Source of the DNA: an uncultured Chloroflexia bacterium
Lineage (GTDB): Bacteria > Chloroflexota > Limnocylindria > QHBO01
Assembly (NCBI GenBank): GCA_963704115.1
Contig: CAVPGY010000007.1
Coordinates: 120,142-184,141 of the forward strand
Reading direction: 5' to 3'
Length of the DNA stretch: 64,000 bases
Below are positions 1,203 through 62,547 of the stretch, piece by piece; within the stretch, counting starts at the first letter, position 1; the number at the start of each line of letters is the position of its first letter. The notes under the pieces were generated by a model. That model saw only the letters and a program-made list of their open reading frames with translations. It did no database searches and had not been told where the DNA came from. The position numbers and the translations under genes were made by a program.

Positions 1203-1545
1203 GCTTGCCGATAGATCGGGCATCGGAGCGCACCATGCCCGCTCCTACCCGGGGCCGCCCGATGTATCGGGCACAGCGGCGCGTCAGGACCGGATCCCCG
1301 CCACTCCTGTGACGTGGTGCCCGATCTATCGGCGCCGCCGAGCCCAACGGCGGCCTCCCGTGCCGTGGTGCCCGATCTATCGGCGCAGTTGAGCCCAACG
1401 GCGGCCTCCCGTGCCGCGGTGCCCGATCTATCGGCGCCGCCGAGCCCAACGGCGGCCTCCCGTGCCGCGGTGCCCGATCTATCGGCGCCGCCGAGCCCAA
1501 CGGCGGCCTCCCGTGCCGCGGTGCCCGATCTATCGGCGCCGTCAG
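1203..1545. repeat. Family A intergenic repeat locus 1: five tandem 51-bp units (copies starting at 1320, 1371, 1422, 1473, 1524) preceded by one inverted (about 1207) and one degenerate (about 1258) copy of the palindromic core
   Basis: Direct reading shows the unit (gtg)cccgatctatcggcgccgccgagcccaacggcggcctcccgtgccgcg repeated with >90% identity. The core gcccgatctatcgggc is a 7+2+7 imperfect palindrome. The array fills the gap between the ASCH gene stop (1542) and the MOSC gene start (1171). Confidence 0.85.
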
Positions 1546-2024
1546 GCCTCGCCGACAGCGATCGGCTCCGGGTAGCGCTCCACCAGCCGGAATCGCTGAC
1601 AGACGATCAGGGTGTCGTCATCGAGCCGCCAGTCGGGATCACCCAGGCCCTCGCGCAGCTCGTCGAGGTAGGTGGTGAAGTACCGCTCGTGGGCGGCGCG
1701 CCAGTCGGCGGCGTCGGCAAAGCCCTCTCCCTCGTCGCGCGCGAACGCGTCGTCGACATCGGCCATGCGGAGAATGCGGCACTCGGTCGTCTCGATCACG
1801 CCCACGAACCTGCCATCCGCCCCGATGACCGCCTCCCGCATGCCGGGGACCGGCACGGTCTCACCGTCGAGCTCGTACTCCACCAGCAGGCCGGCGGTGG
1901 CGGTCTTCGTCCCGGCCAGCACCAGGTCGACGAGCTCGCGCCGCAGCTCGCTTCCCGGGTCGGCGAACCCGCAGACCTGCATCCCGCGGAAGGTCGAGGT
2001 GCCGGCATCGGCGGCGTCGTTCAT
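1542..2024 (-). CDS. ASCH (PUA-like) domain protein
   Basis: Matches the ASCH pattern: ELVDLVLAGTKTATAGLLVEYE..GETVPVPGMREAVIGADGRFVGVIETTECRIL..DDAFARDEGEGF..WRAAHERYF. Start taken at MNDAADAG (ATG 2022-2024); the longer ORF upstream is low-complexity. Confidence 0.7.
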   Translation of the reverse strand: MNDAADAGTSTFRGMQVCGFADPGSELRRELVDLVLAGTKTATAGLLVEYELDGETVPVPGMREAVIGADGRFVGVIETTECRILRMADVDDAFARDEGEGFADAADWRAAHERYFTTYLDELREGLGDPDWRLDDDTLIVCQRFRLVERYPEPIAVGEA

Positions 2025-2275
2025 CACCGGGCATTGTGCCGCGTGGCGTCCACCACCTACGCCGCGCACACGCACCGAACAGGGAGGACCGATGGCGTTC
2101 GAACGCACCGTGGCCGGGACCGGCCCGAACCCCGAGCCGGCGCCGGCGCCAGCACCCTCCGAAGGACCATCCGGCGCGCGACCCACGCCGATAGCGCTCC
2201 AACTCCAGGCCCTCGCCACGGTCGGTCTTGGCGCCGGGTGTACGCTCGACCTTCACACCCTGTGGAGGACGGCCA

Positions 2276-2596
2276 GTGCCAAAGTATCTCATCATCGGCA
2301 GCTACACCGCGGCCGGTGCCAAGGGACTGATCAACGAGGGGGGCAGCGGCCGCAGACAGGCCGCCAGCGACGTCATCGGCTCTGTCGGCGGAACGGTCGA
2401 GAGCTTCTACTTCGGCTTCGGGGGCGACGACTTCTATGTCATCGCCGACTTCCCGGACCACGCCGCCGTGGCCGCGGCCAGCCTGACCGTGGGATCGAGC
2501 GGAGCGGCCAGCATCCGGACCGTGGTCCTGATCACGCCGGAGGAGCTCGACGCCGCATCGAAGCTGAGCCCCACCTACCGCCCGCCGGGCGCCTGA
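2276..2596 (+). CDS. GYD-domain protein
   Basis: VPKYLIIGSYTAAGAKGLINEGGSGRRQAASDVIGSVGGTVESFYFGFGGDDFYVIADFPD is the GYD-family signature. GTG start at 2276 is preceded by GGAGGA (2264-2269). Confidence 0.8.
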   Translation: MPKYLIIGSYTAAGAKGLINEGGSGRRQAASDVIGSVGGTVESFYFGFGGDDFYVIADFPDHAAVAAASLTVGSSGAASIRTVVLITPEELDAASKLSPTYRPPGA

Positions 2597-2642
2597 CCCA
2601 GCACCCGACATCGGCGCACCACTCGAGAGGAGCGATTGACCG

Positions 2643-3038
2643 ATGCAGACCACTACCACGCACCCGAACGCCGAGCTCGGCCGGCGGTTGATGGACGCCT
2701 TCAATGACGTGGACATCGCCACCATCGACAGCCTCATGTCCGATGACATCGCCTGGCACCAGATCGGCGGATCGACGATCCACGGCAAGGAGGCGCTGCG
2801 GGAGCAGATGAGCTCCATGATGGCCCAGGGAGGCGATGACGGGATCACCGCAACGGTGCACGACGTCGTCGCCAGCGACGAGCACATCATCGCCCTCGTC
2901 GACGCCCACGCGACGATGGGCGGGAAGACCTTCGACTATCGGACCGCGGAGATCATGCACGTCACCGACGGCAAGGTCACCGAGCGGTGGGCCTTCTCCG
3001 ACGACACCGCCGCGATCACGAAGTTCTTCGGCGGCTGA
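2643..3038 (+). CDS. SnoaL-like / NTF2-like superfamily protein (ester cyclase/ketosteroid isomerase-like)
   Basis: 131 aa with an NTF2-like pattern (LGRRLMDAFNDVDIATIDSLMSDDIAWHQIGG..ERWAFSDDTAAITKFFG). A GAGGAG RBS lies 8 nt before the ATG. Confidence 0.7.
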   Translation: MQTTTTHPNAELGRRLMDAFNDVDIATIDSLMSDDIAWHQIGGSTIHGKEALREQMSSMMAQGGDDGITATVHDVVASDEHIIALVDAHATMGGKTFDYRTAEIMHVTDGKVTERWAFSDDTAAITKFFGG

Positions 3039-3224
3039 CTCCCTCCCACTCCACCGATGATCGCCGCCGGCCCTCTCGCCGGCGGCGGTCGCGAGTTCGC
3101 TCGACACGAGACGGCGCATGAACCGGTCCGTGCGGGTGACGGTCGAGCGTCACCGATGGGCCAGCGAGTCTGTCCGGTACCGGAGCGCGCATCCACCGGC
3201 GACCGTACCGTGCGACAGTGGCGC

Positions 3225-3545
3225 GAGTTACCGAGGCGGGTATCCAACGACGATCCGAGGACCCGCCAGTGGCCGCACGTTACCGCGCACGGAACATTGC
3301 CGACCGGATTCGACTCCGAACGGCCTCCCGGTGTCCGTTGGATACCCGTACGGGAAACCGCGCGGAGTGGGGCCACGGGCCTCCCGGCCGTTGGTTGCCC
3401 GTACGGGAACCGCGCGGAGTGGGGCCACGGGCCTCCCGGCCGTTGGATACCCGTACGGGAAACCGCGCGGAGTGGGGCCACGGGCCTCCCGGCCGTTGGA
3501 TGCCCGTACGGGAACCGCGACCACGGGCTTCCCGCAGCGCCGCCT
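3225..3545. repeat. Family B MITE-like element (about 3230-3365) whose 3-prime terminal repeat region is amplified as four 53-bp tandem units (about 3335-3545)
   Basis: Inverted termini ggcgggtatccaacg (3236-3250) and ccgttggatacccgtacggg (3335-3354). The unit ccgttggatacccgtacgggaaaccgcgcggagtggggccacgggcctcccgg repeats with a period of 52-53 bp at 3335, 3388, 3440 and 3493. cccgtacggg is an internal perfect palindrome. Confidence 0.8.
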
Positions 3546-5139
3546 CAGCCCGCGGCCTCGAACTCGACGCGAGGACGAGGCTCCGGTGTCGGCGCCGTTG
3601 ACGGAGCTTCGGGAGGATCACCGCCCAGCGATTGCCCGCGAAGGGAGACCACGGCCAGCGCCGCCAGCCCGACCGCCACGACCGCGGCGATGCCCGCGGT
3701 GAGGTGCATCCCGGCCACGAACGCCTCGCGGGCCACCTCCAGCACCACCGCACCAAGCTCCGCCGGCAGCTCCGCGGCGACGGCAACGGCACCGCCGAGC
3801 GTGTCCCGGGCCACCTCGGCGGCGGCATCCGGCACGGCGGCCGGCAGCTGGGCACCCACCGCGCCGCGGTAGATCGCGACGCCGACGCTGCCGAGCATCG
3901 CGATCCCCAGCGCCCCGCCGAGCTCGGCGGCGGTCTCACTGATCCCGGACGCGGCGCCGGCGCGCTCCGGCGGGGCGGTACCGACGATCAGCTCGGTGGT
4001 CAGCCCGAAGACGGGCGCCAGGCCGATGCGAGATCACCACCGACGCGCCGACGAGCAGCGGCAGGCCGTTCGTCGCCCCGACGCCGACGAGCATCGCGAG
4101 ACCGATGGCGCCGATGAACAGTCCCCCGCCGATCAGGTACGCCGGGCGCACGCGCTGCACGATGCGCGGCGCCAGCTGCGACCCGACGATGAACGCCACC
4201 GCCGACGGCAGCGACCACAGCCCGGCATAGCAGGGGCGAGAGCCCGACCACGAGCTGGAGGTACTGCGCCACGAACAGGAAGTAGCCGACCATCACGAAG
4301 ATCGCCAGGAAGTTCACCGCCAGCGCCGCGTTGAAGGTGCGGATCCGGAACAGGCCCACGTCGATCATCGGGTCATCCAGGCGCATCTGGCGACGGACCC
4401 ACAGCGCGCCCACGCCGAGCCCGATGGCGATCGCCGCCACGGCCATGGCTCCGACGCCGTCCTGGGCGATCTCCTTCAGGCCGAAGATGATGGCCAGCAG
4501 CGCCACGATCGACATCCCGGCGCTCAGCAGGTCCAGCCGGCCGGCGTTCGGGTCGCGGTACTCCGGCAGCACCCGCGGCCCGAGGATGAGGAGCAGCGCC
4601 ATCACCGGCAGGGCCAGCAGGAAGACCGATCCCCACCAGAAGAACTCGAGCAGGAGTCCGCCGAGCACCGGGCCGACCGCGCTGCCGGCGCTGAAGGCGC
4701 CGATCCAGACGCCGACCGCGATCGAGCGTTCCTTCGGGTCGGTGAACATGTGGAAGATCAGGCTCAGGGTGCTGGGCGCCAGCGTCGCGCCGCTGATGCC
4801 GAGCAGGGCCCGCGCCACGATCAGCATCTCGGCGCTCGTGCTGAACGCGGCGATGATCGAGGTTGCGCCGAACACCGCCGCGCCGATGAGCAGCAGCCGG
4901 CGGCGGCCGATGCGGTCGCCGAGCGTGCCCATCGTCACCAGCAGTCCCGCGACGAAGAAGCCGTAGATGTCGATGATCCACAGCAGCTGCGCGCTCGTCG
5001 GCTGGAGGTCGGCCGTCAGCTTGGGTACGGCGAGGTGGAGGACGGTCAGGTCCATCACGTACATCAGCGCGGAGAGCGCGAGCACGAAGAGGCCGATCCA
5101 TTCGCGTCGGGTCGCCTTGGGGGGAACGTTCGTCGTCAT
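3545..5139 (-). pseudogene. MFS transporter, DHA2 (14-TM drug:H+ antiporter) family, interrupted by about 3 frameshifts
   Basis: Consecutive pieces of one DHA2 protein lie in three frames: 5139-4230 (MTTNVPPK..AQYLQLVVGLSPL), 4199-4020 (AFIVGSQLAPRIVQRVRPAYLIGGGLF..) and 3898-3545 (MLGSVGVAIYRGAV..C-terminus). Confidence 0.7.
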
Positions 5140-5359
5140 CGGTCCTTTGGTCTTCTGGGGTTGCGTCGTCTCATTGGACCGATGCGGCCCGCGGAAATCA
5201 TCGGTCAAACGACGCGCATGCTCCGCGCATCATGGATGACGCGCGTGCCGAGCGACTCCGAGAGCGTTATCCAGCACGGCATGTGCCGGCGCGAGCCGAT
5301 GAGTTCCGCAAGCGACCGCCGTCCTATCCGCGAAACCAGAGACCCGAGAGGAAGCGCCA

Positions 5360-8586: not shown

Positions 8587-8611
8587 CGTCTCGAGGAGCC
8601 CCCGTGACGGT

Positions 8612-8745
8612 TGCCGGGGCGGGTATCCAACGGCGATCGAGCGGCTCGCCGGTGGCGGCGAGGTACCGCGGCGGGAACATCTCCGACCGAATTCGGGGTC
8701 CCACGTCCGTTCGGCGTCCGTTGGATACCCGTGCGGGTAACCGCC
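8612..8745. repeat. Family B MITE-like element, second copy (single, not amplified)
   Basis: About 75% identical over ~135 bp to the 3230-3365 copy, with the same inverted termini (ggttgccggggcgggtatccaacgg and ccgttggatacccgtgcgggtaacc, about 22/25 complementary). cgtgac occurs just outside both ends. It lies in the sigma-factor to MFS gap. Confidence 0.75.
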
Positions 8746-8885
8746 CCACCTCGTGACCCTGGGACGGCGCCTCGGCGCCCGGCGCCCGCGACGTGCACGC
8801 AGGCACTGGAACGCGGGCGGTAGCATCGGTTGATGCCGCAGCCGAGCGTACCGTCAAGCGTCGCTGAACCCAGGGCGCAGGCCTG

Positions 8886-10174
8886 ATGCCCAGCGCTGCC
8901 CGGGCAGTCCAGCGAACGTACCTCGTGCTGACGCTGCTGACGACGCTCGCCGCCTCGTTCATCTGGGGCGTGAACACGCTCTTCCTGCTCGACGCCGGGC
9001 TGAGCAACGCGGAGGCATTCGCGGCCAACGCGTTCTTCGCCGCCGGCCAGGTGATCTTCGAGATCCCGACCGGCGTGGTGGCCGATACGCGCGGGCGTCG
9101 GTTCAGCTTCATCCTCGGCGCGGCGACGCTCCTCGCGTCCACGCTGCTCTACCTCGTGATGTGGCAGATCCAGGCGCCGTTCATCGGCTGGGCGCTGTCG
9201 TCGGCGCTGCTCGGCCTGGGCTTCACGTTCTTCTCCGGCGCCACCGAGGCGTGGCTCGTGGACGCGCTGACCGAGACGGGCTACGAGGGCGACCTGGAGA
9301 CGGTGTTCGGCCGCGCCCAGGTCGTCGGCGGTGGCGCGATGCTCGTCGGATCGGTCGCTCGGTGGCTTCGTCGCCCAGCTCACCGACCTGGGGATGCCGT
9401 ACATCGTGCGCGCGGCGCTGCTCGGGCTCACGCTGGTGGTGGCATGGGCGTTCATGCGCGACATCGGCTTCACGCCGGACAGGTCCGCCTCGCCGATCCG
9501 GGCCGTGCGCACCGTCATCGACGGTGCGGTGGACGGCGGCCTGCGCAACCGCCCGGTCCGCTGGCTGATGTTCGCCGCGCCGTTCACCACGGGCGTCGGC
9601 TTCTACGCGTTCTACGCGCTCCAGCCGTACCTGCTGGAGCTGTTCGGCGACCCCGACGCCTACGGCATCGCGGGGCTCGCCGCGGCCATCGTGGCCGGCA
9701 CGCAGATGATCGGCGGCTGGTCGGTGCGCTGGGTGCGCCGCTGGTTCTCCCGACGGACCGACGCCATGCTCGTGCTGGCCGTCGTCGGCGTCGCGGCGCT
9801 CGTGCTGCTCGGGCGTCATGCCCCTGTTCGTGGTGGCGGTGGTGCTGCTCGTGCTCTGGGCGCTGGCATCGGCCATCGAGGAGCCGATCCGTCGCGCGTT
9901 CCTCAACGCGCTGATCCCCTCGCAGCAGCGCGCGACGGTGCTCTCGTTCGACTCACTCATCGGGTCGGCCGGCGGCGTGGTGATCCAGCCGGCCCTGGGC
10001 CGCGTCGCCGACCTCAACGGCTACGCCGCCTCGTACCTGGTGGGCGGCGCGGTCCAGGCCCTCGCGATCCCGTTCATCTTCCTGGCTCGACGCGAGCGGG
10101 CGCATTCCGACCCGATCTTCGTCGAGCCTCCCGAGCCTCCCGAGCCTCCCGAGCCACTCGACGCCGATACATGA
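8886..10174 (+). pseudogene. MFS transporter interrupted by 2 frameshifts (near 9350 and 9820)
   Basis: Three consecutive frames (ORFs 8886.., 9331.., 9818..) read through one MFS protein: TM1-6 MPSAARAVQRTYLVLTLL..; the middle GFVAQLTDLGMPYIVRAALLGLTLVV..; the C-terminus MPLFVVAVVLLVLWALASAIEEPIRRAFLNALIPSQQRATVLSFDSLIGSAGG.. Confidence 0.7.
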
Positions 10175-10204: not shown

Positions 10205-10345
10205 CAGCACCCGGCCGATAGATCGGGCACGGCGACGCGGGAGGACCTGGGTCGAGCAATGCACGCGTCGTGCTGCCCGATCTATCGGGCGCGGAGACGA
10301 CCCACAACGCCTCGAGCGCTCCCCGGCCCGATAGATCGGCGAGCC
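10205..10345. repeat. Family A repeat locus 2: three copies of the palindromic core in alternating orientation (about 10213 reverse, 10272 forward, 10328 reverse), spaced 56-59 bp
   Basis: gccgatagatcgggcac / tgcccgatctatcgggcgc / gcccgatagatcggcgag read directly. The locus sits between two convergent genes (MFS end 10174, MetE-like end 10375), an arrangement typical of REP/BIME-like elements. Confidence 0.8.
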
Positions 10346-12526: not shown

Positions 12527-13626
12527 TCAGGCCGGGACCTCGGGCCAGTGGATGGCGTCGAGCCGGCAGCGCGTGACGCACAGCCCGCAGCGTTCGCACG
12601 TCTCCCCGTCGAGCGCGGCGCGGCCGTCGACGAGGTGGATCGCACCGTAGACGCAGGCAGTCACGCAGACGCCACAGCCGTTGCAGGCCTCCGGGTCGAT
12701 GATCGGCGGGGCAGCCGGCCGGCGGGCCAGGCGCGGGTGAGCGACATCCCGGTGAGCTCCCGCGCAGTGGCGTACCCGTGCGCGTCGAGCCACGTCTCGA
12801 GCTCGCTGCGCGAGCTTACCGAAGACCGACGGACCACGAAGGATGGCGGCGGTGCAGACGCCGACCGCCGAGGCCCCGGCCATCAGCATCTCGACGACGT
12901 CGGTGCCGCGGGTCACGCCGCCCACGCCGATGACCGGCAGGTCCATCGCGCGGGCGACGTCGCGGACGCATCGGAGGGCGAGTGGCTTGAGCGCCGGCCC
13001 GCTGATCCAGCCGTGGCCGTTCGGGCCGCCGAGCCGCGGCAGCGCCGTCTCGATGTCGATCGACAGCACCGGGCCGAACGAGTTGATCGCCACCAGCGCC
13101 GTCGGCGCCCGCGTCGGCCGCGAGCCGCGCCGCGTCGGCCCATGTCCTGGCCGTGCGGGCTGAGCTTCACGAGCACCGGCACGTCGAGGGCGGCCTTGGC
13201 CGCGCGGAGCGGCGCCCACCATCGGCTCCGGGTCCTCGCCGATGTAGTGGGTCGACAGCTCGACCGCATCGGCGAACGGGGCGACCTTCGGCGCCAGCTC
13301 GGCGATCTCCGCCGCCGGTGTAGCCGAGGCTGACGATGAGCGGCAGCCCGGCAGTGCGCGCCAGTGCGTACTCGGTCTCGAGCCACTGCTCGGGCGGCAG
13401 CTCGGACCACAGCTCGGTGTTGACGAAGTCGTGGCCGGATCTCGGCCATGTTCGGCGTCGGCGGCTCGGCGGCGCGGGTCGAGATCGTCTTGGCCACGAG
13501 CGCCGCCGGCGCCGCCCTCGGCACAGGCCAGCGATCGCCGGCGCCGTCGCGGACCGGCGGCCCGGCGGCCGGCAGGATCGGGTTGCGGAAGCGGAGGCCG
13601 CAGACCTCAACCGAGAGATCGGCCAT
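12527..13626 (-). pseudogene. PreA-like dihydropyrimidine/dihydroorotate dehydrogenase-family protein with C-terminal 2x[4Fe-4S] ferredoxin domain, multiply frameshifted
   Basis: N-terminus MADLSVEVCGLRFRNPILPAAGPP.., middle FVNTELWSELPPEQW..LPLIVSLGYT and AAKAALDVPVLVKLSPH lie in different frames. The last 231 aa are intact (INSFGPV..VIGVGGV..CNGCGVCVTAC..CERCGLCVTRC). Confidence 0.65.
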
Positions 13627-13639
13627 CATCCGGCCTCCG

Positions 13640-15030
13640 ATCGTCGTGGCCAGCAGCCGGGACGGGCTGAACGGATGCGCCCCGATCTCGTCCAGGCGCG
13701 CCCACAGCCGTACCGCCTGCACGTTGGCGTCGGCGAGCAGCTCGGCCTCGTCGACCCGGGTCAGCGCGCGGTCGCGGACGACCAGCTCGCCGTCGACCAT
13801 GACGTCGCGTACCGCCGCGGCCGCGACGCCGAAGATCCAGTGCGCGGCCAGCGTGGATGCGTCGAGCGGCGTCGGAGCGGCGGTAGATCGAGGACCACGA
13901 GGTCGGCCGGCGCGCCGGGCTCGAGTGCGGCCGAGGAGCGGCTCGGCGAAGGCACGTCCCACGATGCCGGCGCCGGCGGCCAGCCGTGCGAGCGCCCAGT
14001 CGCGGCCCGGTCCCGAGCTCCTCCTCGCGGCGCCGCAGGAAGCGCGCTCCGGGACTCCTCGAACAGGTCGCCGCCGATGCCGTCGGTGCCGAGCGCCACG
14101 CGCTCCGCCGAGCCAGCCGAGCGGCGGCCGGCCCACGCCGTTGTTCATGTTCGAGCGCGGGTTGTGGACGACGGTCGACCCGCGCTCGACCGGATCAGCG
14201 CCGCCTCGGCCGGGTCGAGGTGCACGCCGTGCGCCAGCACCGCGCGGTCGTCCAGCGCGCGCGGCCGCCAGGCGCTGCACCACGCGACCGCCGGTGCGCG
14301 CGACCGGCGTCGGCCTCGTCCACCGCGTCCTCGGCCACGTGGATGTGCAGGCCGGTGCCCGTCCGCCCCGCCAGGGCGGCACACGCGGCCAGCGTTGTCG
14401 TCGGACGAGGGTGAACGACGCGTGCGCGCCGACCATGCCGCGCGCCAGCGGATAGCCGCGCTCCGCGCATCGGCGCAGGAAGCGCGCGTTCTCGGCGAGG
14501 CCGGCGGCGGCGCGCTCCGGCCCGTCGCGATCGGTCACCTCGTAGGCCAGCACCGATCGGAGCCCGAGCTCGCCGAAGGCCTCGGCGATGACGTCGCAGC
14601 GAGCCGTCGATGGCGTTCGGCGAGGCGTGGTGGTCGACGAGGGTCGTGGTGCCGGCCAGCAGCGCCTCGCGAGCGGCGACGAGCGCCGAGGCCCGGACGC
14701 ATCGGCCCGTCGAGTGCCCGGTCGAGCCGCCACCAGACGCGCTGGAGGATCTCGAGGAAGCTGCGTCGGCGGCGCCAGGCGATAGGGCATGCCGCGCGCG
14801 AGGGCCGAGTACGCGTGCGTGTGCGCGTTGACGTTGCCCGGGATCACGAGACAGCCCGTGGCAGTCGCGCGTCGGGATCGCCCGTCCCCAGATCCGGGCC
14901 GAGCGCGGCGATCCGGCCATCGCGGACATGGAGATCCGCGCGCTCGACGATCGGCGGATCGAGCGAGCGGACGACGGTCGCCCCGGTGAGCACCACGTTC
15001 ATGTCGCGACCTCCTCAGCACGCCGCCGCT
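13640..15030 (-). pseudogene. SsnA-like amidohydrolase (chlorohydrolase/deaminase family), multiply frameshifted
   Basis: GCLVIPGNVNAHTHAYSALARGMP (metal-binding HxH), GLRSVLAYEVTDRDG..GAHASFTL, GSTVVHNPRSNMNNGVG, LAGTTTLVDHHASPNAIDGSL, LHIHVAEDAVDE and a C-terminal DVMVDGELVVRDRALTRVDEAEL are spread over three frames. Confidence 0.6.
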
Positions 15031-17636
15031 GGCCGAGCGGGCGAGCCGCGGGACCGCGGCCCGCGCGGCCGTGCAGTCGGACATCGGGAGGCTGGCGCCG
15101 CCGGATGCCGTCGAACGCGTGCAGGGCGCCGGCCACTGCGGCCGCGGTCGGGACGAGGACGGCCTCGCCGGCGCCCTTCGCCCCGTACGGGCCTTCCGGC
15201 TGGTGCTCCTCGACGAGGATCGTCTCGACCTCGGGCATGCCCGCGGCCGGGATGATGTTCGAGCGACTTGAGCGTCTCGGTGCTGCGGCCGGCCATCGGC
15301 CATGGCGAACTCCTCGCTCAGGGCGTAGCCGAGCCCCATGTGCACGCCGCCCTCGATCTGACCCTCGACCGGATCTGCGGGTTGATCGCGCGCCCGACGT
15401 CCTGCGCCGCGACGACGCGCTGCAGCCGTCCCTCGTCGTCGAGGATCACGACCTGCGTCGCCCAGCCGTAGCGCGATGTGCGTCAGCGGATCGGGGATGC
15501 CTCGGGCCGAGCGGCGTCGTCCAGTCGACCATGAACTCGCCGGCGAACTCCCGTCCGGTGAGCTCCTCCAGCGCCGATCCCTGGAGCGCCTCGCAGAGCG
15601 ACAGCGGCCGCGCGCTCGGCACGGCCTGGCCGCCGAGCAGGGTGGCGCGCGAGGCGGTCGTCTCGCCGGTGTCGAGCTCGCGCTCGGTATCGACCACCAC
15701 GTCGATCCGCTCGGCGGCAATGCCGAGCTCCTGCGGCGACGATCTGGCGCAGCGCGGTATGGATGCCCTGGCCCATCTCGGTCCACGAGTGGAACAGCGT
15801 GACGCGAGCCGTCGGCCCCGGGCGCATGATCGCCCGACCGTGCTCGATCAGCGCCGTTGCCGATGCCGGTGTTCTTGGCCCCACAGGCGATGCCGGCGTA
15901 GCGGGCCGACACGATAGGCGTCGCGCACCGCCAGCAGCGTCTCCTTGAGCCCGACGCCCGGGCCGAGCAGCTGGCCGGTGCCGAAGCGGTCACCGCGTCT
16001 CGAGCGCGTTGCGCCAGCGAATCTCCCAGCCGTCGAGACCGACGCGTTCGGCGAGCACGTCGAGCAGGCCCTCGATGCGCGAACGTCACCTGCGGGACGC
16101 CGAAGCCGCGCATCGCGCCGCACGGCGGGTTGTTCGTGTAGACGGCGCGCGCCTCGACGTCGACGTTGGCGACCCGGTACGCGCCGCAGGCATGCCCGGC
16201 GGCTCGCTCGAGCACCTTCGCGCCCACGCTGGCGTACGCGCCGGTGTCGCCGACGATCCGCGCACCGGACGGCGCAGCAGGCGCCCGTCGGCGTCGCAGC
16301 CGACGGTGTATTCGATCGTCATCGGGTGACGCTTCGGATGGAACCGGAGCGACTCAGGTCGCGTGAGGCGCAGCAGCACCGGCCGGCCGGTGTCCAGCGC
16401 GAGCAGCGCCGCCTGTGCCTGGACGCTCAGGTCCTCCTTGCCGCCGAAGGCTCCGCCGGTGGCCACCTGGGTGACGCGAACCGCCGTCTCGGGCAGTCCC
16501 AGCAGCGCCGCGATCTGGCGACGATCCTCCCAGGCCCCCTGGCCCTGCGAATAGACGCGCAGACGCCGTCCTTCGGGACCGCGAGCGCTGCCTCCGGCTC
16601 GAGGAAGGCGTGCTCGATGCGCTGTGTGCGTGAAGGTGTCGCTCACCACGTGCGCGGCGGCGGCGAGGGCGGCATCGACGTCACCGCGCCGGACGACCGA
16701 GGTCGAGAGGAGGTTGCCGCCGGGATGCAGCGGCGGCGCGTCGGGCGCCAGGGCCGCCAGCGGGTCGCTGATCGGCTCGAGGACGTCGTAGTCCACCTCG
16801 ATGAGCTGCGGCGGCCTCGCGCGCCGCGTCGCGCGTGTCGGCAGCCACCGCCGGCCAGCACGTCGCCGACGTAGCGCGTCGTCTCGCCCTCGGCGACGAA
16901 CACCGGCCAGTCGGGCGTGATGAGGCCACGAGAACCGATCGCCGGGGACGTCGCGCCAGGTGACGACCCGGATGACGCCCGGATGCCGTTCCGCGGCGCT
17001 CGTGTCGATGCGCCGCACGACCGCGCGCGGATGGTCGGAGAAGCGCATCGCGCCGTGCAGCATGCCCGGGGCCCGGAGATCCGCGACGAACGGCCGCTCA
17101 CCGAGCACCTGCTCGCGGCCCTCGTAGCGGGGTGCCGGCGCTCCGATCTCGTCCGCGGACGCGGATGCGGCCGGCGCGGCGCCAGCCCTGGCTTCGGCCA
17201 CGCCCCGAATCGCGTCGATGATCTTGATGTACCCGGTGCAGCGGCAGAGGTTGCCGGCCAGCGCCTTCGCCACCTCGTCGCGGCTCGGCTCCGCGTTGCG
17301 GGCGAGCAGCGCCTCCGCCTTCATGACGATCCCGGGCGAGCAGAAGCCGCATTGCGACGCGCCGGCGGCGACGAACGCCTGGGCCCAGGCCGCGCGGGTC
17401 TCGTCGGGCAGGCCCTCCAGCGTGAGAATCTCGCGGTCCTCGAATCGAACGGCGGGCTGCGCACACGAGACGACGGCGCGCCCGTCGACGATCACCGTGC
17501 AGGCCCCGCACGAGCCCTCGGGCGCGCAGCCGTCCTTCATCGAGCGCAGGCCGCATTCGTCGCGCAGCAGGTCGAGCAGGCTGGCGCCCGGCCTCGCGGA
17601 GGCCGCGGTGTGCCGTCCGTTGAGCGTCAGCCGCAT
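15030..17636 (-). pseudogene. Xanthine dehydrogenase / aldehyde oxidoreductase family protein with [2Fe-2S] N-terminal domain fused to the molybdopterin subunit (XdhD/CoxSL-like), with at least 8 frameshifts
   Basis: The first ~200 aa are intact (CGACTVIVDGRAVVSCAQP..ASQCGFCSPGIVMKAEALL..NLCRCTGYIKII, then GAPAPRYEGREQVLGERPFVADLRAPGMLHGAMRFS). The Mo domain is in alternating frames (DWPVFVAEGETTRYVGDVLA; AVAADTRDAAREAA; LIEVDYDVLEPISDPLAAL; VATGGAFGGKEDLSVQAQAALLALDTGRPVLLRLTRPESLRFHPKRHPM; YTNNPPCGAMRGFGVPQVTFA; VEGQIEGGVHMGLGYALSEE). Confidence 0.65.
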
Positions 17637-17868: not shown

Positions 17869-20662
<2,794 letters not shown>

Positions 20663-20666
<4 letters not shown>

Positions 20667-21616
20667 GAAGCTTCATCGGACGCGACATCCTCAGCCTGAA
20701 GGACTTCAGCCGGGAGGACTACTTCCGCGTCTTCGAGGTCGCCAACGAGCTGCGTCCGTACGCGCGCGATCGCCGCAACGGCGATCTGCTCAAGCACAAG
20801 ACCCTGCTGACGGCCTTCTATCAGCCATCGACGCGCACGCGCCTGTCGACCGAGGCGGCGATGCATCGGCTCGGCGGCGCGGTCCTCGGCTTCAGCGACG
20901 CGAAGATGACGCGCGCCGGCGACTTCTACCAGGAGTCGCTCAAGGACACCTTCCGCATGCTGGAGTCGTACGGCGACGTCATCGCCATCCGGCACTTCAC
21001 GGAGGGCGCGCCAGCCGAGGCGGCGAAGTGGTCGTCGGTCCCGATCATCAACTGTGGCGACGGCTGGGGCCAGCATCCGACCCAGGTGCTCACCGACCTG
21101 TACACGATCCTCCTGGAGCGCGGGACGCTCGACGGCCTGACGTACCTGCTGGTCGGCGACATGCGGATGCGCACGATGCACTCCATCCTCCACGCGCTCT
21201 CCCAGTTCGACGCGGAGGCGATCGTCGTCTCGCCGCCGGAGATGGCGCTCAAGCCCGAGTTCATGGCCGAGCTGGATGCGATGAGCGTCGCCTATCGCGT
21301 GGCGGAGGCCGTACCGGAGGTGATCGGCGAGGCGGACATCATCTACATGGAGCCGGTCGTCCAGGCCGACTACACCCAGTCGCGCGTGGAGCGCGGCGAC
21401 GACGTCGCGCGCACGCCGGCCGCGTACCGGGTGACGGCGCAGCTCCTGCGCGAGAAGGCGAAGCGCAGCTCGATCGTGCTGCACTCCCTGCCGCGCATGG
21501 ACGAGCTCAGCGCCGACGTCGACGAGACGCGGCACCAGCGCTACTGGGTCGAGGCGGCGAACGGGGTCGTGCTGCGCATGGCGCTGCTCGCCCTCGTCCT
21601 CGGCGCGGCCGAGTAG
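20663..21616 (+). CDS. Aspartate/ornithine carbamoyltransferase-family protein, ATCase(PyrB)-like
   Basis: STRTR carbamoyl-phosphate motif (FYQPSTRTRLSTEAAMHRLGG), HPTQ, HSLP and a PyrB-like C-terminus NGVVLRMALLALVLG. 317 aa, intact. Confidence 0.8.
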
Positions 21617-21634
21617 CACGGAAGGAACGAACCG

Positions 21635-22613
21635 ATGCAGACCGGATTGCGCGGACGGGACCTGATCAGCCTGTCCGACTGGACGAGCGAGGAGATCGAC
21701 ACCGTCCTGGAGGTCGCCGCGCACCTGAAGCGGGAGCGGGCGCTGGGCATCCCCCACCCCCTGCTGCGGGACCGCGTGCTGGCGATGCTCTTCTTCTTCA
21801 GCTCGACCCGCACCCGAGCCAGCTTCGAGGCGGGCATGGCCCAGCTCGGCGGGCATGCGCAGTTCATCGAGAGCCGCACGACGCAGATCGCGCACGGCGA
21901 CACCCCGAAGGAGATCGGCGAGATCCTCGGCCGCTACAACGACGGCATCGCCATCCGCCACGTGGACTGGGGCGCCGGCAACGCGTACCTCCGCGCGGTG
22001 GCGGAGGCCTCCCGTGTGCCCGTGCTGAACATGCAGTGCGACCTGTACCACCCGCACCAGATCCTCGCCGACCTGCTGACGATGCGCGAGAAGCTCGGTG
22101 CGCTGCGCGGACGCACGCTGACGATCAGCTGGGCGTACGCCGCCAGCTACCAGAAGCCGATCAGCGTGCCGCAGGACCTGGTGACCGCGGCGACGCGCTT
22201 CGGCATGAACGTCCGCCTCGTCCACCCGCCGGAGTTCCGGCTCATGCCCGAGGTCGTCGACGAGGCGACGCGCGAACGCTCGTCGCTCCGGCGGCTCGCT
22301 GGAGCTGATGGACGACTTCGACGCGGGCTTCCGCGGCACCGACGTGGTCTACGCCAAGAGCTGGGGGGCGCTGCTCACCGCGAAGGACGAGGCCGAGGGC
22401 GCGGAGATCGCGACCCGCTACACCGATTGGATCACCGACGAGCGGCGCATGGCGCTCGCCGCGGACGACGCGATCTTCATGCATCCGCTTCCGGCCGACC
22501 GCAACGTCGAGGTGACCGATGCGGTCATCGACTCGCCGGCCTCGGTCGTCTTCGACGAGGCCGAGAACCGGCTCCATGCGCAGAAGGCCGTCATGGCCCT
22601 GACGATGGGCTGA
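21635..22613 (+). pseudogene. YgeW-like (knotted) carbamoyltransferase of the OTC/ATC superfamily, one frameshift near 22270-22290
   Basis: N-terminal 215 aa in frame (FFFSSTRTRASFEAGMAQLGG, MQCDLYHPHQILADLLTM). The C-terminus continues in the ORF 22308..22613 (DDFDAGFRGTDVVYAKSW..AIFMHPLPADRNVEVTDAVIDSPASVVFDEAENRLHAQKAVMAL). Confidence 0.65.
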
Positions 22614-61574: not shown

Positions 61575-61635
61575 GCTTGACGTCCTGCTTGTACCGCGCC
61601 GATGATGCGTCTGGACACATGTCTGGACACACGCC
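61575..61635 (+). promoter_or_regulatory. Putative promoter/operator of the Xre-RES toxin-antitoxin operon: TTGACG, an 18-nt spacer, GATGAT, then two tandem 11-bp direct repeats GTCTGGACACA (61609-61619, 61621-61631) ending 7 nt before the antitoxin ATG
   Basis: Read directly at 61577-61631. The repeats lie between the -10-like element and the start codon, the position expected for antitoxin autorepression. Confidence 0.4.
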
Positions 61636-61638
61636 GTC

Positions 61639-61983
61639 ATGACCATCCGCACCGCACAGATCCAGCCCCGCGATCTGCGGGAGGCGTTTCGCCTCTCGCG
61701 CGAGCGCCTCGCGCGCCTGGTCGGGGTGACGGCCAAGACGGTGGAGCGGTGGGAGGCCAGGCCGACCCGCCCGGCGCGGGACGAGACTCGCATGCGGATG
61801 GCCCAGCTGCGCGAGATCGCCGAGCTGGGCGCGACGGTCTACACCCGCGAGGGCCTCGCCGACTTCCTCGACGCGCCGCTCGCCGAATTCGACGGCCTCA
61901 CGGCGCTCCAGCTCATCGAGCGCGGGGCGGCCGATCGAGTGCTCGCGGCGCTCGCCGCCGACTACGAGGGCGCGGGCTACTAG
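61639..61983 (+). CDS. Xre-family/DUF2384 antitoxin (ParS/MbcA-like)
   Basis: HTH segment LSRERLARLVGVTAKTVERWE followed by DUF2384-like ADFLDAPLAEFDGLTALQLIERG. Confidence 0.8.
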   Translation: MTIRTAQIQPRDLREAFRLSRERLARLVGVTAKTVERWEARPTRPARDETRMRMAQLREIAELGATVYTREGLADFLDAPLAEFDGLTALQLIERGAADRVLAALAADYEGAGY

Positions 61984-62547
61984 GTGGCCTCGCTCCCCGA
62001 CCTCGTCAGGCCGTGGGCCGGCACGGCGTTCCGCCACATCCCTGCCGAGGCGGGGTACGACGTTCGCGACCTCCGGTTCGCGGGACGCCGCAGCGACGGC
62101 CGGTGGCACTGGCGCGGTCAGCCAACCCTCTACCTCGCCTCCGACGCGGGGGTGGCCATCGGCGAGTTCGCTCGCCACCTCGCCGTCGACCGCGGTGGGG
62201 CGGTCGTCCCGGCGCGCAGGACGGTGTACGAGCTCGGCGTGCGGGTCGAACGGGCGATCGACCTCCGCGACCCGGCGGTCCTGCGGCTCATCGGCCGCGA
62301 CGACGCCCCGGGCTGCTGGCTGGACCCAAGAATCGCTCGCGCGGTCGCGACCTTCTTCCGCGACTCCCTCGACGTGCAGGCCCTGGTGGTCCCGAGCGTC
62401 GTGCACCTCGACGATCCGGGGCGGTTCAACGTGGTGGCGTTCCTCGAGAACCTGCCGGACACGCCTCGCTCGTTCCTACCGCGCGCCCGTCGCCGGGCGA
62501 CGGTGAGCGTCGAGCCGGAACCACCGGACGTCGACGACGCGGGCTGA
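61984..62547 (+). CDS. RES-domain toxin (ParT/MbcT-like)
   Basis: GTG start immediately after the antitoxin stop. RES pattern: ..RWHWRGQPTLYLASDAGVAIGEF..YELGVRVER..LVVPSVVHL. Confidence 0.8.
   Translation: MASLPDLVRPWAGTAFRHIPAEAGYDVRDLRFAGRRSDGRWHWRGQPTLYLASDAGVAIGEFARHLAVDRGGAVVPARRTVYELGVRVERAIDLRDPAVLRLIGRDDAPGCWLDPRIARAVATFFRDSLDVQALVVPSVVHLDDPGRFNVVAFLENLPDTPRSFLPRARRRATVSVEPEPPDVDDAG

Follow-up and report, generated by a model that had tools for sequence, protein, structure and literature searches.

A candidate MITE/REPIN-like dispersed repeat with a minisatellite tail in an uncultured Limnocylindria genome

The DNA described here, referred to as the window, is a 64-kb stretch from the genome of an uncultured soil bacterium of the Chloroflexota lineage Limnocylindria. 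Near its start, the convergent 3' ends of a SnoaL-like gene and of a gene for an MFS transporter (MFS1) enclose an intergenic region that holds a 135-nt repeat element, B1, and a tandem array extending from its right end (Table 1). A second copy of the element, B2, begins 24 nt past the stop codon of a gene for an ECF sigma factor, with a second MFS gene (MFS2) following about 140 nt further on; this copy had been missed by the original prediction and was found in the present analysis. B1 and B2 have the same orientation, are 5.4 kb apart and sit at unrelated intergenic sites, the DNA between them being occupied by five genes that do not all point the same way. Three related loci (L003, L005 and L009) share the order MFS1, FAD oxidase, sigma factor, MFS2, and the best relatives of the sigma factor beside B2, 69-84% identical, come from Candidatus Limnocylindria and Chloroflexota metagenome-assembled genomes. 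In two of these loci (L005:10941-11499 and L009:11035-11588), a gene of about 500 nt, cupin-like by sequence, lies between the sigma factor and MFS2; it is missing at window positions 8587-8885, where B2 is found in its place. Two further observations concern the remainder of the window. The C-terminal tail of MFS2 contains an EPP repeat, encoded at 10123-10155 by a perfect 9-nt repeat of 3.7 copies, CGAGCCTCC. At 61984-62544, a RES-domain protein is encoded after a small ORF (61606-61980) with no Pfam hit, a layout which is that of a RES-Xre type toxin-antitoxin pair.

Table 1. Coordinates of the repeat features and of the frame-split genes in the window.
Feature	Position	Strand	Remarks
Element copy B1, core repeat, 135 nt	3227-3361	+	ungapped match to 8610-8744
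Left terminal inverted repeat CGGGTATCCAACG	3237-3249	+	13/13 complementary to 3336-3348; identical in B2
Microhomology GGCCTCCCGG inside element	3322-3331	+	four exact copies, spacing 56, 52, 53
Right terminal inverted repeat CGTTGGATACCCG	3336-3348	+	also opens the first tandem unit
Tandem unit 1, 53 nt	3335-3387	+	element part 3335-3361 (its last 27 nt), flank part 3362-3387 (26 nt)
Tandem unit 2, 52 nt	3388-3439	+	94% identity to unit 1; GGTTGCCCG and GGGAACC variants
Tandem unit 3, 53 nt	3440-3492	+	100% identical to unit 1 over 53 nt
Tandem unit 4, 43 nt	3493-3535	+	unit-2 variants; 10-nt internal deletion
Element copy B2, 135 nt, without array	8610-8744	+	sequence similarity to B1
Frame-split genes	3545-5208, 8886-10174, 12913-17636, 20489-22610		relatives with single ORFs

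The two copies align without gaps and are identical at 102 of 135 positions (76%), whereas the 40 nt on either side of them are 30-35% identical, a value matching the window background of 30%. The repeated thing is therefore a discrete 135-nt element, and its similarity edges displace the boundaries of 3230-3365 that had been proposed for it. Its ends are inverted copies of each other, about 25 nt long, with a perfect core of 13-14 nt, CGGGTATCCAACG. In B1, an exact-seed repeat finder returned CGGGTATCCAACG and CGTTGGATACCCG as a perfect 13-nt inverted repeat with 86 nt between the arms, beyond which the complementarity of the left end is imperfect and reaches outward to about 3227; in B2, the perfect inverted repeat is 14 nt long (8620-8633 and 8718-8731). 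Perfect inverted 13-mers at a spacing of 15-160 nt number 17 k-mer pairs in the window as against 1.0 in shuffled sequence, and most of these pairs belong either to this element, hereafter family B, or to a second repeat family of the window, family A. The 20-mer that starts the tandem units occurs six times in the window at up to three mismatches (0.01 expected), two of the matches bounding B2 at 8614-8633 (- strand) and 8718-8737 (+ strand). With 13/13 complementary positions and a second, sharp-edged copy, the view that B1 is a discrete repeated element with terminal inverted repeats is upheld.

Conservation between the copies is uneven. The inverted ends are identical at 26 of 26 positions and the interior at 57 of 86 (Fisher p = 2e-4); the ends have thus stayed invariant while the interior drifted, which argues for a sequence-specific constraint on the element ends. 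The overall difference of 24% between B1 and B2 indicates that neither is a recent insertion. The best-kept interior block, GGAACAT..CCGACCGrATTCG, lies at 3289-3316 in B1 and 8672-8699 in B2. The GGAAC that opens it resembles the -35 motif of ECF sigma promoters, which may be a coincidence; B2 lies directly after the ECF sigma factor gene and upstream of MFS2, and no matching -10 motif was identified beside the GGAAC block.

The element is non-coding. The 35 substitutions between B1 and B2 are distributed over the three codon phases as 12, 7 and 16, i.e. without periodicity, and a six-frame profile of the two copies had no match among 5.8 billion proteins, spurious ORFs over other copies included. 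Past its last membrane helix, the C-terminus of MFS1 has the length found in its relatives in L005, L009 and L003; since it is full length, the array is not a decayed extension of MFS1. Membership in a protein-coding gene conserved in relatives, for instance as a decayed ORF, had been named as the finding that would overturn the repeated-element reading; the missing codon periodicity and the full-length MFS1 speak against it. With respect to RNA families, the window has no Rfam match at gathering thresholds and nothing beyond sub-threshold noise at E up to 10, and a scan of the window for tRNA and tmRNA genes found none. The searches against Rfam and against proteins agree with the earlier statement that the sequence was not recognised as a described family.

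The array was reported by Tandem Repeats Finder at 3335-3519 (period 53, 3.5 copies, 94% matches, score 335). The exact-seed repeat finder located the tail motif CCACGGGCCTCCCG a fourth time, at 3521-3534 and at a spacing of 43 nt, so that the array consists of four head-to-tail units, of 53, 52, 53 and 43 nt, and not of 3.5. The original prediction of four 53-bp units running up to the MFS stop is thus right in the number of units, their lengths being unequal and the array ending at 3535, 10 nt short of the MFS1 stop codon (TGA, 3545-3547, - strand). A perfect 10-nt palindrome, CCCGTACGGG, had also been predicted, and it is present in four of four units, with five occurrences in the window against 0.09 expected. 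As each full unit joins element sequence to neighbouring DNA, the array is a local tandem duplication across the junction of element and flank; what was described as the expansion of the element's 3' end into a satellite did involve the right end, together with flanking sequence that makes up 26 of the 53 nt. Apart from the 9-mer GGCCTCCCG (p ~0.05), neither the DNA after B2 nor the spacers of family A are significantly similar to this flank part. Units 2 and 4 have the variants TGCCCG and GGGAACC in common, and 3335-3414 is 99% identical to 3440-3519, from which it follows that the dimer of units 1 and 2 was duplicated. The 10-mer GGCCTCCCGG closes every unit (3378, 3430 and 3483) and is found once inside the element, just before the right inverted repeat, where it is likely to have been the substrate of the first duplication. 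Judging from this pattern, the array would have been made in two rounds of duplication. No CRISPR-type unique spacers are present in the array, in which the whole 53-nt unit repeats, and a CRISPR array was rejected on these grounds.

Family A forms an array at 1304-1541 (51 nt, 4.7 copies), which is preceded by boxes at 1207 and 1258 and abuts the stop of the - strand ASCH gene at 1542, and a non-tandem copy of three boxes at 10211-10340, after MFS2. Its boxes are near-palindromes, CCGATnnATCGG or (C)CGATnnATCG(G), at distances of about 50-51 or 62-65 nt from one another, and AGGACC is conserved as an internal motif. Clusters of the same family are found in other Limnocylindria (L009 19246-19430, L013 583-840 and L014 1669-1845), the L009 site being non-orthologous to the copies in the window. 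Family A has the same architecture as family B, occurs beyond the source genome and is the older of the two. A short block had been said to be common to the two families; the 9-mer GGCCTCCCG is indeed present in both arrays, which contain eight of its nine plus-strand occurrences in the window, but at 72% G+C this sharing is only marginally beyond chance (97 of 2000 shuffles reach the score, p ~0.05). With families A and B, this lineage has at least two sets of small box-bounded repeats that are prone to tandem amplification just past stop codons.

As far as collections show, family B is nearly private to its source genome. Nine Limnocylindria relatives (L001-L009) lack the element in their orthologous sigma-MFS and MFS-downstream intergenic regions. 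In the corresponding loci of the relatives, arrays with a period near 50 nt are missing, long inverted repeats are very rare, and L003, L005 and L009 have no inverted repeat like that of the element. These orthologous intergenic regions do not align with the window and provide no alignable empty site, the relatives having diverged too far (~70-84% protein identity) to show a clean one. In 1.38 Mb of searched loci, the element is absent save for a weak partial match in the metagenome contig L083 (E = 2.8e-4), and a blastn search of 3221-3545 against plasmids gave no match. A paired-end search pattern for family B, GGGTATCCAACN{73,103}GTTGGATACCC, had 0 matches in 185,579 species-representative genomes, 0 in viral contigs and four in metagenome contigs (L081, L082, L083 and L084). 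L083, a high-GC contig, is the only related-looking locus of the four, having the ends and about 20 nt in common with the element. The others were set aside: L081 and L082 are one and the same sequence, a probable chance match whose 11-nt arms are bare, and L084 is a low-GC, unrelated 25-nt inverted repeat. At these loci, the 11-nt ends GGGTATCCAAC and GTTGGATACCC enclose unrelated interiors (L084:860-1030; L081:4294-4414, equal to L082:2189-2309), the arms in L084 being about 25 nt long with three GGTRTCCA repeats; this likeness may be due to chance or to a common recognition motif.

Discrete boundaries, conserved inverted ends, lack of coding capacity, an intergenic position and absence from relatives make up the anatomy of a small non-autonomous repeat. 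On balance, and with moderate confidence, family B is best read from these features as a MITE/REPIN-like dispersed non-coding repeat, presumably mobile, whose first copy has acquired a minisatellite tail. Against mobility count the small number of copies, two in the 64-kb window scanned and both within 5.4 kb, the lack of a consistent target-site duplication over the two copies and the absence of a transposase gene from the window. B1 can be read as lying between two GCGCG sequences if its ends are set at 3226 and 3359, a GC-rich 5-mer inseparable from chance, and B2 has no abutting direct repeat. Neither a transposase nor an integrase nor a Y1 transposase was found among the ~80 scanned ORFs of the window.

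In the mechanism that we propose, the element would fold, as single-stranded DNA or as RNA, into one long hairpin, and its copies would have entered intergenic DNA, the most likely agent being a transposase that is provided in trans and recognises these conserved ends. The array at B1 would have arisen in steps. A 53-nt segment made of the right end and flank may first have been duplicated between two GGCCTCCCGG microhomologies, 56 nt apart, by slipped-strand mispairing or unequal recombination. The two resulting units would have diverged at three positions before the 105-nt dimer was duplicated in turn, and the last unit would have gained one substitution and lost 10 nt, the outcome being the four-unit minisatellite that abuts the 3' end of the MFS transporter gene. 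An effect on the host can be envisaged: wherever the elements are transcribed, the adjacent gene would gain very stable hairpins in its 3' untranslated region, and these, as described for REP/BIME and Correia-type repeats, could end transcription or make the transcript more stable.

A related reading holds that the element is primarily a structured RNA, i.e. a terminator or stabiliser hairpin of a 3' untranslated region or a small RNA, of which the inverted repeats are the terminal stem. Both copies are predicted to form hairpins closed by the inverted ends, with energies of -57.9 kcal/mol for B1 (z = -2.5) and -80.5 kcal/mol for B2 (z = -4.2), and the whole 328-nt region of B1 and its array reaches a predicted -184 kcal/mol on either strand. 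Besides the stability of these folds on both strands, the nearness of stop codons (24 nt upstream of B2; 10 nt from the array of B1 to the MFS stop) is in favour of this reading. However, the opposite strands of B1 and B2 are predicted to fold about equally well, as is the case for any inverted DNA repeat. A consensus fold of B1 and B2 retains the invariant terminal stem alone, the internal helices being different; two of 35 predicted pairs change on both sides between B1 and B2. The terminal stem is thus kept by identical sequence and not by compensatory change, and being invariant it is uninformative on structure, so that the comparison provides no evidence for a conserved RNA architecture. 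The folding check that had been recommended therefore confirmed the stable hairpins and limited what is conserved in them to the terminal stem, and of the two natures first proposed, a mobile-element type or a structured RNA, the MITE/REPIN-like anatomy has held up and the RNA side lacks conserved internal helices. A scan for sigma-70 promoters and intrinsic terminators found nothing in or near the elements, there being no U-tract and no terminator-like site, and Rfam, as stated above, gave no match even at E = 10, noise aside. Altogether, a primary role as structured RNA seems unlikely.

The conserved ends fit a binding site for a host protein equally well as they fit the recognition ends of a mobile element. 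The 13-nt ends and the boxes of family A would, on that account, be candidate protein sites within host cis-elements that serve regulation or nucleoid organisation. The perfect conservation of the ends beside a drifting interior is what such sites predict, and the period of both arrays, 51-53 nt or about five helical turns, would put successive sites on one face of the helix; family A keeps a spacing of about 50-51 or 62-65 nt in other genomes as well, and its boxes CCGATnnATCGG are near-palindromes, as operators often are. The B box, however, is not a palindrome, and the sites are found past stop codons or between convergent genes, not at divergent promoters. Half of the B unit is arbitrary flank, as an accidental duplication predicts, and the interior of the element, at 66% identity between copies versus 30% background, shows that the repeated thing is the element and not the box alone. 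No candidate binding protein is encoded nearby. We regard a host cis-element as improbable. A broader proposal takes families A and B as one undescribed repeat system of Limnocylindria, in which short sequence-specific boxes would be copied and amplified into phased arrays of ~51-53 nt after stop codons and kept up by a recognition protein of their own, distinct from both RAYTs and classical IS transposases; this is put forward as speculation and is quite unlikely to be correct. If it were, the Chloroflexota would have a persistent replicator of the REPIN-like type, or an array by which the host organises its DNA, and we know of neither in this phylum.

The reality of the array has to be considered in view of the quality of the sequence. 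Several genes of the window are split over two or three frames: MFS1 lies in two pieces, MFS2 in three, and frame-splits also affect the genes for a carbamoyltransferase and a molybdopterin/xanthine-dehydrogenase-like protein. The closest relatives of the window are long-read metagenome-assembled genomes, and taken together with the split genes this makes indel errors of long-read assembly likely; the split genes are probably such errors rather than pseudogenes, and the difference between units of 52 and 53 nt, which is that of the length of one A-run, is not to be over-read. Low consensus accuracy, indicated by the many frameshifts, and this A-run would be compatible with an array produced by misassembly, to which the idea of a decayed Gly/Pro-rich C-terminal extension of the MFS protein may be added. 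Independent data are available from sample ERR12037370, which appears to represent the same community and of which one short-read contig encodes identical ASCH, GYD and SnoaL proteins and corresponds by gene coordinates to window positions 1512-3364. One of its ends lies within the family A array and the other 30 nt into the B1 array, exactly where the repeats start branching; as a break is expected at such a branching point of a de Bruijn graph, the contig lends independent support to the arrays as real. A second contig of this sample, again by gene coordinates, passes straight through the non-tandem family A copy at 10211-10340. The variants common to units 2 and 4 are as a real duplication of a dimer predicts, and the core element is present again at 8610-8744. 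Decayed coding sequence is contradicted by substitutions without codon periodicity and by an MFS C-terminus of the same length as in relatives. Both an assembly artefact and a decayed MFS C-terminus were thus considered and rejected, and we give them very little credence.

Least credible is an integron attC-like site. The length of ~110 nt is within the attC range, and attC-type boxes are present in the correct orientation in B1 (ATCCAAC at 3241-3247, consensus RYYYAAC; GTTGGAT at 3338-3344, consensus GTTRRRY) and likewise in B2, with two metagenome contigs, L083 and L084, showing identical 11-nt ends around unrelated interiors; but the consensus is degenerate (~0.7% chance in a 13-nt repeat) and the match was noticed after the fact, the predicted helix is a continuous one of 17 bp with a single bulge that extends 5 nt outside the R boxes, with no unpaired central spacer and no L-box layout, the DNA between the copies consists of five ordinary genes in both orientations whose order is conserved in relatives lacking the element, and no integrase was found among the ~80 scanned ORFs of the window. 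Helix layout, gene content, synteny and the missing integrase all speak against an attC site, and the candidate was rejected.

Extensive work on small palindromic repeats exists for Proteobacteria and some other groups, whereas, to our knowledge, Limnocylindria and other uncultured Chloroflexota of soils have hardly been examined for them. Among the bacterial MITEs whose terminal inverted repeats are long are Correia/NEMIS of Neisseria, ERIC/IRU of enterobacteria and bcr1 of Bacillus, which are often co-transcribed with a neighbouring gene, and Correia elements duplicate a TA. Like these elements, which are ~100-160 nt long, non-coding and intergenic, with terminal inverted repeats of 13-26 nt, family B as a whole corresponds to one long hairpin. 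With 135 nt it is below the limit of ~300 bp that is usual for MITEs, and it has no protein relative; its terminal inverted repeats, perfect over 13-14 nt and imperfect over ~25 nt, are identical in both copies; and, with regard to dispersal, two sharp-edged copies are present in 64 kb and none in the loci of relatives. Unlike for those MITEs, no target-site duplication is established and two copies are seen, sequence similarity to them is absent, and the host belongs to the Chloroflexota.

REPINs normally number tens to hundreds per genome. As in REP/REPIN sequences, the ends of family B form an inverted doublet that gives a hairpin of ~110 nt, placed outside genes at gene 3' ends. Ordered tandem REPIN clusters including their flanks, as well as evenly spaced REP arrays, have been described (PMC3116915), and such REP clusters are the best match to the array, with units reiterated together with flanking DNA as at 3335-3535. 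REP units bear a GTAG (or CGTC) tetranucleotide tag at one end (PMC3733652); no GTAG tag is found at the B ends, and CGTC adjoins the box in two of four arms and in none of the array units. REP and REPIN sequences are mobilised by RAYT transposases (PMC3116915, PMC3733652), and the window contains no RAYT gene. A REP is, on its own, an imperfect palindrome that forms a stem-loop, unlike each B end: as single-stranded DNA, the four single ends fold at -1.6 to -4.6 kcal/mol (z of +0.67 to -0.98 against shuffles), i.e. near the shuffle level, so that none of them is a stem-loop alone. Because of this, and because neither GTAG nor CGTC is a constant tag, the term MITE-like fits better than strict REP.

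The array itself invites comparison with the MIRU minisatellites of mycobacteria, intergenic tandem units of 46-101 bp that are located within operons and contain small ORFs overlapping the flanking genes. Compared by description only, the likeness lies in intergenic head-to-tail units of about 51-53 nt, with few copies per locus and a number likely to vary between strains; the 51-53-nt arrays are accordingly likely markers for strain typing, at which short-read assemblies break. In contrast to MIRUs, the B array has a period, 53 nt, that is not divisible by 3, sits between convergent genes and has grown from the end of a dispersed inverted-repeat element; coupled ORFs of the MIRU type were rejected given this period, the convergent genes and the distance of 10 nt to the MFS stop. 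The BOX elements of Streptococcus pneumoniae have the structure boxA-boxB(n)-boxC, in which the repeated module is part of the element. They resemble family B in being modular, with one module tandemly reiterated to a variable extent and outer modules that pair into a stem, and differ from it in that half of the B unit is local flank and in having no sequence similarity to it. The locus offers two concrete repeat families with defined boundaries, and through them a possible entry to putative REPIN-like replicators of these genomes and to the enzyme that would move them. In other respects the element is ordinary and leaves the view of how such repeats work unchanged: set beside the systems above, family B adds a new family, from an under-studied phylum, to a known kind of small bacterial repeat.
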